A stretch of 64,000 nucleotides of DNA from Candidatus Omnitrophota bacterium. GTDB lineage: Bacteria > Omnitrophota > Gorgyraeia > Gygaellales > Profunditerraquicolaceae. The translations under genes and the position numbers were made by a program. The stretch lies in the NCBI GenBank assembly GCA_028715785.1, contig JAQURC010000002.1, forward strand, positions 8,402 through 72,401, read 5' to 3'. The notes beneath the pieces were generated by a model. That model was not told where the DNA came from. It ran no database searches and saw only the letters and a program-made list of their open reading frames with translations. Below are positions 2 to 63,322 of this stretch, in pieces. Each line of letters begins with the position of its first letter. The stretch's first letter is position 1.

Positions 2-127
2 CACTTCCAGTTCATTAAATCAATTGCCTATGATTGCGATATGGACGCGCTTTTGATCAAGGTACGCCAGGCAGGCAAAGCCTGCCATACCGGAAATAGA
101 AGTTGTTTTTATAGAAAGATAAAATAG
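2..127 (+). CDS. hisI: phosphoribosyl-AMP cyclohydrolase HisI, C-terminal fragment (5' end outside window)
   Basis: Frame-2 translation ...[32 protein letters not shown] matches conserved HisI C-terminal motif (CDxD...ACHTGxxSCF); stop TAG 125-127. Confidence 0.6.
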
Positions 128-1723: not shown

Positions 1724-1975
1724 ATGGCAGTACATATTCGACTAAGAAGGATTGGTAAAAATCCCGGCGGAAAGCCGCATTTCCGCGTTACCGTCTTTGA
1801 TGAGCGCAGGGGCCGGGACAGCCGGATAATCGAAGAGCTGGGTTATTATAAACCGACCAGCGGCTCGGCAGTGCTTAAGCAAGAGCGCATCGCAGCCTGG
1901 ATAAAAAATGGCGCCCAGTTGTCTGCAACCGTAAAGAGTTTATTGAAGAAGTCCAATAATACCCCGCGCTTATAA
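1724..1975 (+). CDS. rpsP: 30S ribosomal protein S16
   Basis: MAVHIRLRRIGKNPGGKPHFRVTV... typical S16 N-terminus; SD GGGAGG upstream. Confidence 0.9.
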   Translation: MAVHIRLRRIGKNPGGKPHFRVTVFDERRGRDSRIIEELGYYKPTSGSAVLKQERIAAWIKNGAQLSATVKSLLKKSNNTPRL

Positions 1976-2030
1976 GGAATTGCGCGCCTGCCTACCGGCA
2001 GGCAGGGGCAGCCCTTTTGGGCAAAGGAGC
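1961..2030 (+). repeat. gene-proximal hairpin+SD element, variant copy with extra palindrome (CCTGCCTACCGGCAGGCAGG) upstream of yajC; overlaps rpsP stop
   Basis: ACCCCGCGCTTATAAGGAATTGCGCG...GGCAGCCCTTTTGGGCAAAGGAG; rpsP ends ...NNTPRL* with TAA inside the element loop. Confidence 0.65.
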
Positions 2031-12196: not shown

Positions 12197-12202
12197 AAAG
12201 TA

Positions 12203-12229
12203 CCCCGCGCTTAGCGGAATTGCGCGGGG
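12203..12229 (+). repeat. gene-proximal hairpin element, partial copy (hairpin 1 only: CCCGCGC-TTAGCGGAATT-GCGCGGG)
   Basis: Sequence family alignment; tandem with the next copy. Confidence 0.6.
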
Positions 12230-12244
12230 TTACACTATGGGCAA

Positions 12245-12294
12245 CACCCCGCGTTTATAAGGAATTACGCGGGTGTGTCCTACTGACAAGGAGG
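12245..12294 (+). repeat. gene-proximal two-hairpin+SD element (copy upstream of rplL; hairpin 2 variant GTGTCC-TAC-TGACA)
   Basis: CACCCCGCGTTTATAAGGAATTACGCGGGTGTGTCCTACTGACAAGGAGG then ATG. Confidence 0.7.
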
Positions 12295-23145: not shown

Positions 23146-23196
23146 ACACCCCGCGCTTATAAGGAATTGCGCGGGTGTGCCCCTAGGGGCAAGGAG
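23146..23196 (+). repeat. gene-proximal two-hairpin+SD element (upstream of tuf)
   Basis: CACCCCGCGCTTATAAGGAATTGCGCGGGTGTGCCCCTAGGGGCAAGGAGG. Confidence 0.75.
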
Positions 23197-23204
23197 GATA
23201 AAAA

Positions 23205-27761: not shown

Positions 27762-27811
27762 CACCCCGCGCTTATAATGTATTGGGCGGGTGTGCCCTTT
27801 TGGGCAAGGAG
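27762..27811 (+). repeat. gene-proximal two-hairpin+SD element (upstream of rpsC)
   Basis: CACCCCGCGCTTATAATGTATTGGGCGGGTGTGCCCTTTTGGGCAAGGAG. Confidence 0.75.
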
Positions 27812-27819
27812 AATAATTC

Positions 27820-30878: not shown

Positions 30879-30929
30879 ACACCCCGCGCTTATAATGAAT
30901 TGCGCGGGTGTGCCCGTGTGGGCTAGGAG
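30879..30929 (+). repeat. gene-proximal two-hairpin+SD element (upstream of rpsH)
   Basis: CACCCCGCGCTTATAATGAATTGCGCGGGTGTGCCCGTGTGGGCTAGGAG. Confidence 0.75.
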
Positions 30930-30934
30930 AATAA

Positions 30935-31330: not shown

Positions 31331-31332
31331 AT

Positions 31333-31381
31333 ACCCCGCGTTTATAAGGTATTGCGCGGGTCTGCCCTTGCGGGCAAAGGA
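31333..31381 (+). repeat. gene-proximal two-hairpin+SD element (upstream of rplF; stem G-U variant, weak SD AAGGAAA)
   Basis: ACCCCGCGTTTATAAGGTATTGCGCGGGTCTGCCCTTGCGGGCAAAGGAAA. Confidence 0.7.
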
Positions 31382-31388
31382 AAAATAA

Positions 31389-36390: not shown

Positions 36391-36440
36391 CACCCCGCGC
36401 TTAAAAGGAATCGCGCGGGTCTGCCCGCCTGGGCAAGGAG
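36391..36440 (+). repeat. gene-proximal two-hairpin+SD element (upstream of rpsM)
   Basis: CACCCCGCGCTTAAAAGGAATCGCGCGGGTCTGCCCGCCTGGGCAAGGAG. Confidence 0.75.
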
Positions 36441-36448
36441 CTTAAAAT

Positions 36449-36861: not shown

Positions 36862-36910
36862 CACCCCGCGCTAATTTGAATTGCGCGGGTGTGTGTTCGT
36901 ACACAAGGAG
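36862..36910 (+). repeat. gene-proximal two-hairpin+SD element (upstream of rpsK; hairpin 2 fully covaried TGTGT-TCGT-ACACA)
   Basis: CACCCCGCGCTAATTTGAATTGCGCGGGTGTGTGTTCGTACACAAGGAG. Confidence 0.75.
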
Positions 36911-36921
36911 ATAAAAATAAA

Positions 36922-42004: not shown

Positions 42005-42053
42005 CACCCCGCGCTTATAAGGAATTGCGCGGGTGTGCCCGTGTGGGCAAGGA
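42005..42053 (+). repeat. gene-proximal two-hairpin+SD element (upstream of pilT)
   Basis: CACCCCGCGCTTATAAGGAATTGCGCGGGTGTGCCCGTGTGGGCAAGGAGG. Confidence 0.75.
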
Positions 42054-42060
42054 GGAATTG

Positions 42061-47007: not shown

Positions 47008-47056
47008 CACCCCGCGCTTAGAGGAGTTGCGCGGGTGTGCCCTGGTGGGCAAGGAG
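47008..47056 (+). repeat. gene-proximal two-hairpin+SD element (upstream of lipoyl-domain gene)
   Basis: CACCCCGCGCTTAGAGGAGTTGCGCGGGTGTGCCCTGGTGGGCAAGGAGG. Confidence 0.75.
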
Positions 47057-47062
47057 GTTACC

Positions 47063-51854: not shown

Positions 51855-51867
51855 AATTAGACAATTT

Positions 51868-52100
51868 GGTAAACTTATAGGTTAAGGGAAATCCGTAAAT
51901 ACGGATGCGGTCCCGCCGCTGTAAGGGCAGACGAAAACTGCATAAGTCACTGTCTTTAGTGTTAAAGACGGGAAGACGCAGTAAGTAGGTTAGAAGCCCA
52001 AGCCAGAAGACCTGCCTATATAAAGAATGGTAATGCCTCGTGGAATGGGTTAAGAAATATTTGGGTGCAACCCGTCAGCAACTGTGGCGGGTTTTTTGTT
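51868..52100 (+). promoter_or_regulatory. cobalamin (B12) riboswitch with intrinsic-terminator expression platform
   Basis: AAGGGAA, CCCGCCGCTGTAAG, GTCACTG (B12 box), GGGAAG, GACCTGCC conserved blocks; terminator ACCCGTCA-GCAACTG-TGGCGGGT + TTTTTTGTTT at 52069-52100. Confidence 0.6.
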
Positions 52101-58305: not shown

Positions 58306-58321
58306 TTTATAGAGAAGAACA

Positions 58322-58452
58322 AACCAGATAGGCGGAGGAAATCCTGGTGTAATCCCAGGTACTGTCGCGCAACGGTAATCCCGCAAGGGTAGTCCGGTCG
58401 ACCACCTATCGCAAGGCCTGCCTGCCGGCAGGCAGGTAAGTACTCTCGCAGA
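58322..58452 (+). promoter_or_regulatory. cobalamin (B12) riboswitch upstream of btuB
   Basis: GGAAATCCTGGTGTAATCCCAGGTACTGTCGCGC (GGTG-AATCC / ACTGT core), GCAAGGCCTGCC; 10-bp palindrome CCTGCCTGCC/GGCAGGCAGG. Confidence 0.6.
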
Positions 58453-58468: not shown

Positions 58469-60355
58469 ATGAAAAATATTTGCAAGAAATCGCTCATACC
58501 GGCATTGCTGGTTATGATCCTGTCAGGAATTTCATGGGCAGAAGAAGGGCAAGATATACATGATTTGGAGAAGATAATCGTTACCGCAACAAGGACAGAG
58601 GCAAGTCAGTATTCTACAGGTAGTTCTGCTACGGTAATAACCGCAGAAGAGGTTGGTCAAACAGGCAAAGATGAGTTCTCTGACCTGTTAAGGGATGTTC
58701 CGGGAGTTACGGTTTCTCAGTCGGGAAGCATCGGAGGTTTGACTAATGTTTATCTTCGTGGATCTAAGCCCGGCCACACATTAGTTATGGTTGATGGAGT
58801 GGAGCTTAACGATCCCATGAGTACCGATCGTTCCTTTGATTTTTCCAATCTAACCATGGATAATATTGAGCGTATTGAAGTGATCCGTGGGCCGCAGTCT
58901 GCCCTTTACGGTTCTGATGCTATGGCCGGCGTAATTAATATTATTACTAAAAAAGGCAGGGGGAAACCGGAGTTTAGTAGTTCCTTTGAAGGCGGCGCAC
59001 ACAATACATTTAGAGAAAATTTGACTTCAAGCGGCAATATAGATAAATTTAATTATTCCCTGTCTGTTTCGCGCCTTGATTCCGGCGGTATTTCCGCGGC
59101 AGCAGGAGGTTCTGAAAAAGATCCCTATCATAATAACGCTATCTCCTCTAGGATAGGGTATAAGGTTTTTGATAACAGCGAATTGAGTTTAGTTGCCCGC
59201 TATACGAATAGTAAGACTTCTATCGACAATGGCGCTTATGATGACGATCCTAATGATACTCTTTGGTCGAAGGATCTTGCCACTAGGTTGGCATTTGACC
59301 AGGCAATAAATTACTGGTGGAACCATTGTCTGTCATTTTCTTATAATGATGTCCGCCGCAAGGGTCGTAACGACAAGGATCCGTCGCACCCGGATGATTA
59401 TTCCAGCGATTGGTATAAAGGTAACATTAAAAAGGTTGAATGGCAGCACAATATTTCTCCTGCGAAATGGAATACTCTTACCGCTGGTTTTGAGTATGAA
59501 AGAGAAAGCGGATCATCTTATTATGAATCGGATAGTTCTTTTGGTCCTTTCTTAAGTAAGCAAGACAGAAAGAGTGTTGATAATAAAGGGTACTATTTTC
59601 AGGACCAGTTTAAGTTTTGGGAGAAACTTTTTATTACTCCCGGATTAAGGATCGACGATCACGAACTTTTCGGCGCTGAAACTACCTATAAAATATCCGC
59701 GGCCTATCTTATTCCCCAGACAGGAACTCGTCTTAAAGGTAACTGGGGCACAGGGTTTAAGGCACCGTCTCTTTATCAACTTTATTCAAGCTACGGCGAT
59801 ACTAGTCTCAAGCCGGATAAAAGCAGAAGTTATGATTTTGGGTTTGAGCAGAGTTTTTTTAAGGATAAACTATCTTTTGATTTAGCGTATTTTCATAATG
59901 ACTTTAGGAATTTGGTTGATTATGATTATAATACTAATAAGTATAAAAATATCGGCAGAGCAAGTACTAAGGGTTTTGAAGTCGGAGCAAAATTTTCGCC
60001 AGTTGAAAATCTAACAATAGGAGGAAACTTTACCTATACTGACACGCAAGATAAAGAAACTGGCCTTGAATTATTAAGGCGGCCGAAGAGGCAGTTTAAT
60101 TTTGACCTCAACTGGGGTTTTCTGCCCAACGCCAATCTTAACCTGGGGTTAAATCATGTGGGCAGCCGCAAAGATTATGTGTATATTACCGATAAATCCT
60201 ATACGATTGTCCGTCTGGCTTCTTCTTATAATGTAACAAAAAACTTCCAAATTTTTGGCAGGATAGAGAATCTTTTTGATAAGGAGTATCAGGAAGTTAA
60301 CGGCTATGCTACGCTCGGGCGTTCATTCTACGGAGGCATTAAGGGTAAATTCTAA
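58469..60355 (+). CDS. btuB: TonB-dependent outer-membrane receptor (BtuB-like)
   Basis: Signal peptide, TonB box EKIIVTATR, plug plus beta-barrel, C-terminal Phe. Confidence 0.85.
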   Translation: MKNICKKSLIPALLVMILSGISWAEEGQDIHDLEKIIVTATRTEASQYSTGSSATVITAEEVGQTGKDEFSDLLRDVPGVTVSQSGSIGGLTNVYLRGSKPGHTLVMVDGVELNDPMSTDRSFDFSNLTMDNIERIEVIRGPQSALYGSDAMAGVINIITKKGRGKPEFSSSFEGGAHNTFRENLTSSGNIDKFNYSLSVSRLDSGGISAAAGGSEKDPYHNNAISSRIGYKVFDNSELSLVARYTNSKTSIDNGAYDDDPNDTLWSKDLATRLAFDQAINYWWNHCLSFSYNDVRRKGRNDKDPSHPDDYSSDWYKGNIKKVEWQHNISPAKWNTLTAGFEYERESGSSYYESDSSFGPFLSKQDRKSVDNKGYYFQDQFKFWEKLFITPGLRIDDHELFGAETTYKISAAYLIPQTGTRLKGNWGTGFKAPSLYQLYSSYGDTSLKPDKSRSYDFGFEQSFFKDKLSFDLAYFHNDFRNLVDYDYNTNKYKNIGRASTKGFEVGAKFSPVENLTIGGNFTYTDTQDKETGLELLRRPKRQFNFDLNWGFLPNANLNLGLNHVGSRKDYVYITDKSYTIVRLASSYNVTKNFQIFGRIENLFDKEYQEVNGYATLGRSFYGGIKGKF

Positions 60356-60502: not shown

Positions 60503-62602
60503 ATGGGTTTTGACCTGTTGTTGTTGGCGCCGGTTGGTTCGATATTGGCTTTGAGTTTCGCTTTTTATCTGGCCTTGAGTATTTTGAAAATGGATGAGGG
60601 CACGGATAAGATGAAGGAGATTGCCCAGGCGGTGCGCGTTGGCGCCCAGGCCTATTTAAAAAGGCAGTATCTGGGTGTCTCGATGTTTTTTATTGTGGTG
60701 TTTTTCATTCTTCTGGCGATGGCTATGAAGAATTATCTGGTCATCTTTGTGCCGTTTGCTTTTTTAACCGGCGGTTTCTTTTCAGGCTTGTCCGGTTTTA
60801 TCGGGATGACTATTGCCACCCAGTCCTCTAACCGTACCGCCCAAGCCGCGTCTAAGAGTTTGAATTCCGGCCTGCGCGTTGCTTTTTCCAGCGGGGCAGT
60901 TATGGGGCTTACCGTGGTCGGTTTAGGGCTATTGGATTTGAGTATCTGGTATTATTTTTTAAATTGGTATTATTCTTGCCATCCTACCCCGCTGGGAACG
61001 GATAAGATCGCGGCAATTACTTCAACTATGCTTTGCTTTGGTATGGGCGCCAGCTCGATGGCGCTTTTTGCCAGGGTCGGCGGAGGTATTTTTACTAAAG
61101 CCGCGGATGTCGGCGCGGACTTAGTCGGGAAGGTTGAGGCGGGAATCCCCGAGGACGATCCGCGCAACCCGGCAGTTATCGCTGATAATGTCGGCGATAA
61201 TGTCGGCGATGTCGCGGGTATGGGCGCTGACCTTTACGAGTCTTATGTCGGTTCCATTGTCGCCACTTCGGCTTTAGGCGTTGCCGCCGGCCTCGGTGTT
61301 GCCGGGGTGACTGTGCCGATGGTTATGGCCGCGGTAGGGGTTATCTCTTCGATTATCGGAACATTTTTTGTTAAAAGCGGAGAACAGGCCAGCCAAAAAG
61401 TTCTTTTGGCAGCTTTACGTAAAGGAGTCTTTACCAGTTCATTTATCGTCGCGGTAATCTCATTTTTTCTGGTTAAAGCAACATTGGGCGCCGGGAATTT
61501 AGGCGTTTATTGGTCGGTATTGGCGGGTTTAGTTGCCGGAGTATTGATTGGTTTGTGTACGGAGTATTATACTTCCAGCGGTTTTAAGCCAACGCGTTCA
61601 ATTGCCGATGCTTCTTTAACCGGCCCGGCAACCGTAATTATCGGCGGTATCGCGGTAGGGATGATGTCCACGGCTATTCCGGTAATTATCGTATGCATTG
61701 CTATTTTAATAAGTTTTTATTTATCCGGCGGGGCGGCTAATTTTAACGCCGGCCTTTACGGTATCGCCATTTCAGCAGTAGGGATGCTTTCTACTTTAGG
61801 TATAACTTTGGCTACTGATGCTTATGGCCCGGTCGCGGATAATGCCGGAGGAAACGCCGAGATGTCAAAGCTTCCTCCTGAAGTAAGGAAGAGAACTGAT
61901 GCCCTGGATGCTTTGGGTAATACGACCGCGGCAACCGGTAAAGGTTTTGCCATTGGTTCAGCAGCCCTGACAGCATTAGCTTTGATTGCCGCGTATAAAG
62001 ATCAAGTTTTGCTTTTTGGCAGGGATATTAATGCCAGTATGATGAATCCTACGGTGTTAATAGGTTTATTTCTAGGCGGAATGCTGCCGTTTTTATTCTG
62101 CTCTATGACTATGCGCGCCGTAGGAAGGGCAGCGGGTAAAATTGTCGTGGAAGTCCGCCGGCAGTTTAAGGAGATCATTGGTCTGATGGAAGGCACAGCT
62201 AAGCCTGATTACGCGCGTTGCGTAAGCATTGCCACTGCGGCAGCGCAAAAAGAAATGATCGCTCCTTCACTTTTAGCAATCGCGGCTCCAATAGGTGTGG
62301 GGTTACTGATAGGTATTGACGCGGTTGCCGGGCTTCTGGTTGGGGCAACGGTTACCGGATTTGTTTTAGCGGTTATGATGGCTAATTCCGGAGGCGCCTG
62401 GGATAATGCCAAGAAGTTTGTGGAAGAAGGGCATCATGGCGGTAAAGGCTCAAATGCCCATAAAGCTACCGTGGTTGGCGATACAGTGGGCGATCCCTTT
62501 AAAGATACTTCCGGGCCAAGCTTAAATATTTTGATCAAGCTTATGTCCATGGTCTCCATTGTTTTTGCCTCATTTATTATTAAAAATACGTTATTTAAGT
62601 AA
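60503..62602 (+). CDS. hppA: membrane-bound H+(or Na+)-translocating pyrophosphatase
   Basis: 699 aa; GDNVGD (twice) and DNAGG signature motifs. Confidence 0.9.
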
Positions 62603-62612
62603 TTCAGGTTAA

Positions 62613-62700
62613 GGGACTGTTTCTATTTTTTCATTACGGTAGAGGAGGTTTAAACCTCCTCTACCGTTGAAAGAAAAATAGGACTGTCCCCTTGTTTTTG
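62613..62700. terminator. long imperfect hairpin (about 38-nt arms, inner perfect 15-bp palindrome CGGTAGAGGAGGTTT/AAACCTCCTCTACCG) followed by TTGTTTTTG; likely hppA terminator; related to hairpin at 4550-4600
   Basis: Read directly. Confidence 0.5.
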
Positions 62701-62716: not shown

Positions 62717-63322
62717 ATGGATGATTTGGGGTTTGTCCAAGGCTGCCTCAAGGGGAACAAGCAATCCTGGTCTGAATTCATCTCGCGTTATTCCCGCCTG
62801 ATCTATAACTATATCTATAGTGTTTTGGCTGTCAAAGGCCACACCGCTCCTGCGGAACAGGTCGAGGACATCTTCCAAGAAATATTTCACGCCTTAATCA
62901 AGGATAACTATAAAAAACTATCCACTTACCAGGCAAAAAACGGCTGTTCTTTAGCCAGTTGGCTTAGACAGGTTACGATTAATTTTACCATTGATTATTT
63001 ACGCAAACTTAAGCCCGCTGTATCCCTTGACGCGGAGAATGAGGAGGGTTTTAGTTTAGGGGATACTCTCAAGGATCTAACGGCCGGGGCAATTGAATTT
63101 CTTAATGATCAGGATCGCCGTAAGACTCTGCAGGAATGTATCAGCTTGCTTGAATCCGATGAACAGTTCTTTCTTGAACTATTCCTGAATCAAGAGTTAA
63201 GCCTGGAGGAGATCAAGGATTATTATAAAATTAACCGCGGAGCAGTGGATATGCGCAAAAGCAGGATATTCCAGAAATTGCAGGATTGTTTCAAAAATAA
63301 AGGTTTTACTGAGGCTCAGTAG
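62717..63322 (+). CDS. ECF-type RNA polymerase sigma-70 family factor
   Basis: 201 aa; region 2 (IFQEIFHALIKD) and region 4 HTH (LSLEEIKDYYKINRGAVDMRKSRIFQKL). Confidence 0.75.
   Translation: MDDLGFVQGCLKGNKQSWSEFISRYSRLIYNYIYSVLAVKGHTAPAEQVEDIFQEIFHALIKDNYKKLSTYQAKNGCSLASWLRQVTINFTIDYLRKLKPAVSLDAENEEGFSLGDTLKDLTAGAIEFLNDQDRRKTLQECISLLESDEQFFLELFLNQELSLEEIKDYYKINRGAVDMRKSRIFQKLQDCFKNKGFTEAQ

Follow-up and report, generated by a model that had tools for sequence, protein, structure and literature searches.

The stretch of DNA analyzed here, hereafter the window, comprises 64,000 nucleotides (nt) of a Candidatus Omnitrophota bacterium (assembly GCA_028715785.1, contig JAQURC010000002.1, positions 8,402 to 72,401) and carries a long run of genes on the + strand. 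The run begins with trpE, rpsP, yajC, secDF, mfd and two tRNAs, continues with the secE-nusG-rplKAJL-rpoBC-str-S10-spc-alpha ribosomal block, and then passes through metabolic genes to a cobalamin gene cluster. The present work concerns the junction between rpsP, the gene for ribosomal protein S16, and yajC, where the end of rpsP lies inside a copy of a repeat element made of two hairpins, and where this copy is itself split by a palindrome of 20 nt. The features of the junction are as follows, in window coordinates.

1724-1975, + strand: rpsP (ribosomal protein S16), 83 amino acids (aa), tail KKSNNTPRL; open reading frame (ORF), Pfam PF00886, 100 % identical to the annotated S16 P0001
1958-2022, + strand: net insert relative to empty-site relatives, 65 nt, consisting of the 45-nt two-hairpin element and the 20-nt palindrome (junction comparison)
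1961-1986, + strand: first part of hairpin 1, with 5' arm ACCCCGCGC (1961-1969), loop TTATAAGGAATT (1970-1981) and inner 3' arm GCGCG (1982-1986)
1987-2006, + strand: palindrome copy 1, CCTGCCTACCGGCAGGCAGG, inside the 3' arm of hairpin 1; the orthologous elements of L236 and L237 do not have it
2011-2022, + strand: hairpin 2, GCCC TTTT GGGC
2023-2034, + strand: AAA GGA GCT TAA, the yajC Shine-Dalgarno sequence (SD; AAAGGAG) and what remains of the ancestral rpsP end (K G A stop)
2036-2314, + strand: yajC (PF02699)

The S16 of the window is identical to an S16 annotated by NCBI in Omnitrophota (P0001). The last four sense codons of its gene (ACC CCG CGC TTA) and the stop codon TAA (1973-1975) consist of repeat-element sequence and occupy the 5' arm of hairpin 1 (1961-1969) and its loop (1970-1981). 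An earlier, sequence-only reading of this DNA had proposed that rpsP ends as NNTPRL-TAA within a repeat copy, and the limits of the ORF (1724-1975), arm and loop bear this out. It had also placed the palindrome between hairpin 1 and hairpin 2, which is not the case: the palindrome splits the 3' arm of hairpin 1, which reads GCGCG / palindrome / GGGG, and the base of the stem is closed by the GGGG at 2005-2008. The predicted fold of this copy is a Y-shaped three-way junction standing on the base CCCC(1962-1965)/GGGG(2005-2008).

Junction DNA was compared across about 50 relatives, and S16 tails were compared among the best 120 S16 cluster representatives. In the empty state, rpsP ends AAT AAA GGA GCT TAA, followed by T ATG, and its last codons (AAAGGAGCTTAA) both specify the NKGA-TAA end and double as the yajC ribosome-binding site. 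The same string is retained intact in the window at 2023-2034, on the 3' side of the insert: the junction reads TCCAAT, the 65-nt insert (whose limits can be shifted by 2 nt, AA), then AAAGGAGCTTAATATGCCACAG. At 2023-2038, the former K-G-A-stop codons as well as the SD and ATG of yajC are unchanged, the relic rpsP codons at 2023-2034 being no longer coding. The flanks are about 80 % identical to those of relatives, and the sole indel is a clean 65-nt gap (L006, L003, L012). The window allele is the empty allele plus 65 nt in otherwise collinear flanks, which confirms the earlier suggestion of an insertion next to the gene end. The recruitment of the hairpin as a coding end, proposed with it, holds as a consequence of the insertion and not as an alternative to it.

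The S16 tails are in line with this picture. The common tails were KKSNKGA, KKDKGA and KKDK; about ten of the 120 representatives presented the tail NK(S/G)LP(A/T)G(R/G)QGA, and only four a TP(R/H/G) tail. The S16 protein P0005 presents the tail SNTPHA. The comparison suggested by the sequence-only reading, namely whether orthologues without the element also end in TPRL, was carried out: element-free S16 orthologues end in SNKGA, DKGA or DK, and not in TPRL, and their stop overlaps the ribosome-binding site of yajC. Within the cluster of S16 sequences sharing at least 90 % identity, 10 of 15 have an empty-site tail, 4 have an element-derived tail (NNTPRL, NNTPR, NDTPRL, NDIPRL) and one a palindrome-derived tail (NKSLPAGRQGA). 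Three alleles, that is empty, palindrome-only and element, are thus found together in a single 90 %-identity cluster, and a fourth, element plus palindrome, is the window's own state. The insertions of element and palindrome at rpsP are recent relative to the divergence of S16.

Taken together, these alignments show that the ancestral rpsP ended AAT AAA GGA GCT TAA, with codons that also served as the yajC SD and with the ATG of yajC one base past the stop. A 45-nt copy of an Omnitrophota-wide repeat then inserted immediately 5' of AAAGGAG. This insertion cut rpsP from its old tail and stop and left the SD and ATG of yajC untouched. The ORF now takes four codons (TPRL) from the 5' arm of hairpin 1 and is closed by the TAA that most copies of the element have in the loop. 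The two closest sequenced relatives, GCA_041643235.1 (L236) and GCA_041643255.1 (L237), possess the orthologous rpsP-yajC element with an intact arm GCGCGGGTA and the same hairpin 2 GCCCTTTTGGGC, and the junction alignment shows no palindrome in either element. From these alignments, the palindrome entered the 3' arm of hairpin 1 after the split from these two relatives. As L236 and L237 carry the element without the palindrome, a derivation of the window allele from the palindrome-only allele of other relatives was rejected.

Elements occur at the rpsP-yajC junction in lineages of differing S16 identity (window, L236-L238, L081, L082), and in L238 a second element is nested inside the first. 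This presence in several lineages could also mean that the element is ancestral at the junction and was precisely deleted in the "empty" relatives. Such a history is highly improbable. The compact empty arrangement, in which the rpsP stop overlaps the yajC SD or abuts it, is the majority one and reaches distant relatives of 55-75 % S16 identity; each loss would have had to restore exactly an in-frame KGA-stop tail, many times over; and the alleles carrying an element are of several structural types, simple, nested, or nested without the outer arm, a diversity that separate or continuing events would produce. More distant Omnitrophota (L010, L038, L053, L055) carry unrelated inserts at the same junction, and those of L038 and L053 read as two hairpins followed by an SD. 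This suggests either several families of hairpin repeats or a general preference for hairpins before SDs.

The repeat is not confined to rpsP. The 26-nt string ACCCCGCGCTTATAAGGAATTGCGCG starting at 1961 was found in 8 copies with at most 3 mismatches in the window, against 0.00 expected in shuffles. With a covariance model, 11 copies of the element were detected, all on the + strand, which is the gene strand. Besides the rpsP copy, these are the following.

12202-12228, + strand: copy with hairpin 1 only, followed 17 nt later by a full copy; the sole tandem arrangement in the window
12245-12294, + strand: copy between rplJ and rplL
23147-23197, + strand: copy between fusA and tuf
27762-27812, + strand: copy upstream of rpsC
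30880-30930, + strand: copy between rpsN and rpsH
31332-31382, + strand: copy between rpsH and rplF
36391-36441, + strand: copy upstream of rpsM
36862-36911, + strand: copy between rpsM and rpsK
42005-42055, + strand: copy upstream of a T2SSE/PilT-type ATPase gene
47008-47057, + strand: copy upstream of a gene for a lipoyl/biotinyl-domain protein

The unit, defined by direct-repeat analysis and the covariance model, consists of hairpin 1, with arms (C/T)AC-C-CCGCGC and GCGCGG-GTG around a loop of 11-12 nt, a linker of 1-2 nt, hairpin 2, with a stem of 4-5 bp and a loop of 4-5 nt (typically GCCC-NNNN-GGGC), and AAGGAG; the start codon lies mostly 4-7 nt past the latter. Among 104 distinct sequences, 98 % of the cells were paired and 13 of the 14 pairs had changed on both sides, as counted in alignments fitted to the covariance model. 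These pairing statistics were reached by none of 500 shuffles, and slid registers gave only 29-64 % paired. The extra, unpaired C of the hairpin 1 5' arm was invariant (155/156 aligned copies), and the loop has conserved ends, T-(T/A)-A on the 5' side and G-G-(A/T)-A-T-T on the 3' side. Hairpin 2 is free in sequence and keeps its pairing: GCCC/GGGC, GTCT/AGAC, CGCC/GGCG, GTGT/ACAC and CCTC/GAGG were all found. Also, stem sequences vary within one genome with pairing kept, such as CCGGCC/GGCCGG and CAAATC/GATTTG (L088, L086). In other species, the copies orthologous to those before rpsH, rplF, rpsM and tuf (protein identities of 81-97 %) differ by compensatory changes, which argues for selection on the fold. 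The data thus show both the fold of the element and a fixed geometry, in which stop, hairpin 1, hairpin 2, SD and start follow each other. In most predicted folds, the SD is single-stranded beside a stable hairpin.

Known signals do not account for the element. At gathering thresholds, an Rfam search of the whole window returned only one Cobalamin riboswitch and two tRNAs, and nothing at the elements; a permissive Rfam search on one copy gave only matches with E >= 0.62. No intrinsic terminator was called on the + strand at the elements, where GTGCCC comes after hairpin 1 and AAGGAG after hairpin 2, with no T/U run. A sigma-70 promoter scan gave no hit at 1960-2030 or 12245-12294, and the 5' flank of the element is not conserved. 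Judging by sequence, the element is therefore neither an intrinsic terminator nor a sigma-70-type promoter. CsrA-type sites, which the GGA of the hairpin 1 loop and the GGA of the SD about 30 nt apart could have formed, were set aside as well, as many loops present GGT or TGA.

Hairpin 1 might still be a site acting in DNA, either the operator of a dimeric regulator or an internal promoter using the TTATAA of the loop as a -10 box. It would offer two half sites of 9-10 bp, 11-12 bp apart, and a loop similar to TATAAT, and copies do lie before tuf, rplL and rpsM, for which other bacteria have internal promoters. We regard this as hardly credible: there is no -35-like conservation upstream, the promoter scan was empty at the elements, the variation of stems within a genome with pairing kept (L088, L086) fits base pairing and not half-site recognition, and hairpin 2 is conserved only as a fold.

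A degenerate pattern for hairpin 1 was found in at least 114 stretches of species-representative genomes, nearly all of Omnitrophota; according to record titles, roughly 55 assemblies labelled Omnitrophota or Omnitrophica carry it among the matches listed. The covariance model gave 172 matches in total across the loci examined. The pattern-matched loci contained 105 + 51 copies, and only 6 were found in 776 kb around rpsP of relatives. Full-length matches to the model also occur in a few assemblies labelled Planctomycetales, Margulisiibacteriota and Deltaproteobacteria. Six further pattern matches (Actinomycetota, Aeromicrobium, Aurantimonas, Acidobacteriaceae) were taken as chance, for lack of a covariance-model match, and a phage-borne origin of the element was rejected, the hairpin 1 pattern being present in only 4 stretches of viral contigs. 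In the genome of Ca. Velamenicoccus archaeovorus LiM (L192:2040-2300; NZ_CP019384.1, 1720001-1728000), nested and tandem elements are present, and so is the palindrome.

The relation of the element to genes is constant in most copies. A start codon lies between -3 and +29 nt past the modelled end of the element (SD included) in 124 of the 172 copies, with a mode of +4 to +7. A downstream start was found for 90 of 121 copies as oriented versus 12 of 121 with the orientation reversed, and L149 contains a copy on either strand, each standing before its own gene. From these few examples, the orientation of the element appears to follow transcription rather than replication. Upstream, 101 copies have a long co-oriented ORF that ends nearby, and in 44 of these it stops at most 12 nt before the element, most often by a TAA abutting CACCCC. 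In 26 of the 101, the upstream ORF reads into the element, and 22 of these 26 stop at a TAA, TGA or TAG of the loop; hence the rpsP case is recurrent for the family and not a one-off. The genes downstream are varied housekeeping genes, including those for DAHP synthase, SHMT, chorismate synthase, GDH, IGPD, NDK, P-II, S8, L6, S16 and EF-Tu.

Copies of the element have also multiplied locally. Nested copies are frequent. The outer hairpin 1 then holds in its loop, between AAGG and AATT, the hairpin 1 and hairpin 2 of an inner element; such copies were found in L081 (at rpsP-yajC too), L097, L125, L101, L156, L086, L192 and L238. Tandem arrays with a period of 46-49 nt are present in L108 and L159, and L105 contains a mosaic of related hairpins, in an array after a gene and before a promoter-like site. 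All ORFs of at least 80 codons in the loci, about 1.9 Mb, were searched with two seed sequences for a REP-associated (RAYT) or IS200-type transposase. The sole RAYT-like match, at L095:5654-6154 on the - strand, is weak (E = 4e-7); it possesses an HVHLV motif and lies between cell-wall genes. This ORF is flanked by its own inverted repeats GAACTGTCCCCC / GGGGGACAGTTC, unrelated to the element, and stands 5 kb from any copy of it. With these two seeds, no link between a transposase and the element was found in the loci searched. Beyond the two internal hairpins, no terminal inverted repeats were seen, and an AAGR...AAGGAG flank exists in one subfamily only.

Such features leave room for a purely selfish reading, in which the element is REP- or MITE-like DNA mobilized in single-stranded form by a tyrosine (HUH) transposase or similar enzyme, and in which the hairpins serve transposition. 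The position next to the SD and the co-orientation would then result from target choice, through an asymmetric AAGG- or AAGGAG-like site, or from the survival of harmless insertions. The presence/absence polymorphism among very close relatives is in keeping with this, as are the nested and tandem copies. In one subfamily, many copies are immediately bordered by AAGA or AAGG on the 5' side and by AAGGAG on the 3' side, which has the look of a duplicated or preferred target, and nested copies directly follow the AAGG of the host loop; moreover, G-T wobble is tolerated in DNA hairpins too. Against this stand the copies kept at the same ribosomal-operon junctions across species with compensatory changes, which imply purifying selection on the fold. 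The window copies have no AAGR 5' flank, the only RAYT-like ORF has unrelated inverted repeats far from any element, and a single hairpin 1 consensus extends over roughly 55 species, unlike species-specific REPs. On balance, we consider the selfish reading possible, yet rather unlikely as the whole explanation.

We infer instead that the element is an intercistronic mRNA module which also proliferates in the manner of REP elements. It would act as a self-folding cassette in the mRNA, in which the downstream SD, at the foot of hairpin 2, stays close to an upstream stop located either in the hairpin 1 loop or at the foot of that hairpin, and the SD would be left unpaired immediately 3' of a stable hairpin. 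A trans-acting protein, for which an RNA-binding protein or an RNase would be a candidate, probably recognizes the invariant foot (CAC, bulged C, GUG) together with the semi-conserved loop (U-W-A ... G-G-W-A-U-U). New copies would arise by a duplicative process, visible as nested and tandem copies, and their insertion may be tolerated because the element supplies a stop and preserves the SD. Plausible roles are the insulation of ribosome-binding sites, the protection of cistron ends from exonucleases, or a processing site. That the element has a genuine function at the RNA level with a trans-acting partner is, in our estimate, a little short of an even bet, and it is compatible with the selfish reading. 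More specifically, the element could be the recognition site of a phylum-specific RNA-binding protein or ribonuclease punctuating the polycistronic mRNAs of Omnitrophota, being at the same time a self-propagating cassette with its own stop and a preserved SD; this we hold to be distinctly unlikely, while worth stating.

Several points weigh against the combination of this insertion history with an mRNA module. The choice of several independent insertions (window clade, L081, L082) over one old insertion with precise losses is a judgement of parsimony. The fitting of the alignments to the covariance model enters into the pair counts. G-U pairs outnumber A-C mismatches by 18 to 8, a weak lean to the sense strand, and the z-scores of single-sequence folding are modest (-0.7 to -4). 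Some copies are not intercistronic and lie after the last gene of a unit, before a promoter-like site or before tRNA genes. Thus, copies in L159:3730-3950 (three in tandem) and L113:550-780 stand immediately upstream of tRNA-Gly genes. There the tRNA begins with GCGGGTG..., a sequence similar to the 3' arm of hairpin 1, and its first bases are shared with the 3' arm of hairpin 2. Neither a transposase nor a target-site duplication nor terminal inverted repeats could be identified for the element, so that it is called mobile only on account of presence/absence, nesting and arrays. Finally, a function at the RNA level is something we infer from modelled folds and from position. With these points included, the insertion history together with an intercistronic mRNA module is nevertheless the explanation that we consider probable overall, and with good confidence.

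The second repeat of the junction, the 20-nt palindrome, has a partner far downstream. The copy CCTGCCTACCGGCAGGCAGG at 1987-2006 matches at 19 of 20 bases the perfect version CCTGCCTGCCGGCAGGCAGG at 58417-58436, and these two matches in the window compare with 0.00 expected. The sequence-only reading had rightly recognized this near-identity; its coordinates for the second copy (58412-58431) are 5 too low. The features concerned are the following.

58313-58441, + strand: cobalamin-type riboswitch candidate (AdoCbl model), below the gathering score; followed by a gene for a TonB-dependent receptor (58469-60355)
58417-58436, + strand: palindrome copy 2, CCTGCCTGCCGGCAGGCAGG, a lineage-specific insert in the 3' end of the riboswitch; absent in L239, L240 and L241

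No family of CL00101 reaches its Rfam gathering score at 58313-58441; the AdoCbl model (RF01482) gives 37 bits against a gathering score of 50 (E = 1.4e-5). The context is that of a B12 function, with a TonB-dependent B12-type receptor downstream and cob genes upstream. A first cobalamin riboswitch, at 51862-52033, precedes a putative B12 transport cluster and, with 88 bits, lies above the Rfam threshold. The claim that the second palindrome lies in a B12 riboswitch thus stands as to its location, at the 3' end of a cobalamin-type candidate, and fails as to its being an ancestral part of the expression platform. The riboswitch leader of the L236 and L237 assemblies is almost identical to that of the window, with ATATAGG or ACATAGG in place of the window's CGCAAGG plus palindrome, the net difference between the window and these two closest relatives being 20 nt. 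On this comparison, the B12 riboswitch at 58.4 kb received another copy of the palindrome at its 3' end in the same lineage, and the palindrome is not an ancestral part of the platform. Because L236 and L237 have the element without the palindrome, and likewise the leader without it, the element came first and both palindromes are later, independent gains. In L239 and L240, the riboswitch 3' end reads CCTAT-ATATAGG, the ATAGG of the P1 5' strand being repeated past the 3' strand. In the window, a stretch of the riboswitch has changed to CGCAAGG beside the insert, and at both palindrome sites of the window 3-5 adjoining bases differ from relatives.

The palindrome also occurs apart from the window's two sites. 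It is found alone at the rpsP end of other relatives, within the yajC SD region, where it encodes LPAGRQ or LPTGGQ in frame in an S16 of 88 aa, and in LiM it occupies the same position in hairpin 1 as in the window. The rpsP-yajC junction has gained it in two different configurations among related genomes; this junction may be a hot spot for the palindrome, or the palindrome may favour hairpins beside an SD. It lies inside hairpin 2 of elements in L112, L170, L180 and L186, and immediately 5' of another GGAGG...ATG in L171. Allowing up to 3 substitutions, 26 copies were counted in 1.72 Mb of Omnitrophota loci, and 6 of them are inside elements, which make up about 0.5 % of these loci. The exact 20-mer CCTGCCTGCCGGCAGGCAGG was moreover found in 35 stretches of unrelated viral contigs (IMG/VR, L197-L231, for example L217) with a GC content of 38-68 %, some contigs containing several copies. 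We estimate the expected frequency of a given 20-mer at about one per 10^12 bases. At L221:2239-2330, the palindrome forms the long extra arm of a tRNA-Met that is still called by ARAGORN, and at L228:515 it lies in a D-loop-like GGTA^GAGC. It is flanked by direct repeats of 7-14 nt in L199 (1660), L205 (8396), L060 and L215.

It could be argued that the palindrome is a functional hairpin of the riboswitch platform which has been re-used at rpsP-yajC. Copy 2 does align with the 3'-terminal hairpin of the AdoCbl model, and in relatives the palindrome stands immediately 5' of the yajC GGAG, like hairpin 2. We find this quite improbable, given that both the leader and the rpsP element are the same in the two closest relatives, which lack the palindrome at either place, and that the identical 20-mer recurs in hairpin 2 of other elements, in tRNA genes and in 35 stretches of viral contigs. 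The sharing between riboswitch and rpsP noted earlier is thus real, and the functional link read into it is not, both copies being secondary, lineage-specific insertions. If mobile, the palindrome would be an unusually small element, with sites in frame in S16, in tRNA genes, in a riboswitch and in viral contigs. A 32-nt perfect palindrome, ACGGTAGAGGAGGTTTAAACCTCCTCTACCGT, at 62636-62667, in the gap between genes ending at 62602 and starting at 62717, is unrelated to either repeat.

Comparison with known systems helps to situate both repeats. REP/BIME sequences of Enterobacteria and Pseudomonas are short, GC-rich, imperfect palindromes thought to stabilize or modulate the upstream mRNA. Like them, the element is a short, multicopy, imperfect palindrome located between operon genes, with which it would be transcribed, it forms clusters and mosaics, and the upstream stop is often within about 15 nt. 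With 11 copies in 64 kb and 172 in the loci examined, it is a short multicopy extragenic palindrome in the REP sense. Unlike REPs, it possesses no GTAG foot, its foot being CAC(C)...GTG in 155/156 aligned copies. REPs occur in both orientations or as inverted pairs (REPINs), whereas the element is co-oriented with the downstream gene; it also abuts the SD, its second hairpin is conserved only as a fold, one consensus holds across roughly 55 species, and no associated RAYT was found in the about 1.9 Mb of loci. Mycobacterial MIRUs are units of 46-53 bp or more in operon gaps. The element resembles them as a gene-oriented, intercistronic and sometimes tandem unit, whose ends overlap the upstream stop and the downstream start region; however, covarying hairpins do not define MIRUs, which are found in a different phylum, so that the likeness is an analogy of placement and not homology. 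The Rickettsia palindromic elements (RPE) and the Neisseria Correia elements are also palindromic repeats in or next to genes that supply protein ends, but they measure 100-155 bp, have terminal inverted repeats (with a TA duplication for Correia) and no fixed relation to the SD. By analogy, the element would work most like REP/BIME and be placed most like MIRU, and its effect on rpsP recalls RPE and Correia.

In its RNA features, the element is functionally analogous to the iron-responsive element (IRE) and to the MS2/PP7 operators, with a conserved single-base bulge near the foot and a conserved loop on a variable stem. Its position between cistrons, beside a ribosome-binding site, is like that of chloroplast intercistronic PPR sites, though here no binding protein is known. 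For the 20-nt palindrome, the closest analogue is the mobile GC clusters of yeast mitochondrial DNA, which are also tiny, GC-rich, polymorphic palindromes of an AT-richer genome, located in spacers, in frame in genes and in RNA genes; these are organellar and of 30-40 bp, whereas the palindrome is bacterial, of 20 nt, and present in viral contigs too. Literature searches combining Omnitrophota or Omnitrophica with hairpin, repeat or palindromic gave no description of the two-hairpin repeat or of the palindrome, and the sequence string of neither was found in the text of the literature searched. The Omnitrophota genome papers examined do not mention repeats, hairpins, intergenic regions or the SD. 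We thus describe the element as a small structured intergenic repeat, with a minority chance that it is a new RNA signal punctuating operons.

The rpsP-yajC junction provides a clean, dated case in which a small repeat has rewritten the end of a universal ribosomal protein gene, the next gene being unharmed. For annotation, this means that such repeats alter gene ends and can mimic or disturb predictions of RNA motifs. The element family also combines hallmarks of a functional RNA, namely covariation, an invariant bulge, a fixed place adjacent to the SD and conservation at orthologous junctions, over roughly 55 species of a phylum almost without experimental genetics. LiM is the only Omnitrophota cultivated in enrichment with a complete genome, and a metatranscriptome of its enrichment culture has been reported. 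As this complete genome contains both the element and the palindrome, function is directly testable there. If the punctuation reading were true, the element would delimit cistrons in operons for ribosomal proteins and biosynthesis, sometimes in tRNA clusters too, and would set the ratio of output between neighbouring genes; it would then be a bacterial counterpart of organellar intercistronic processing.

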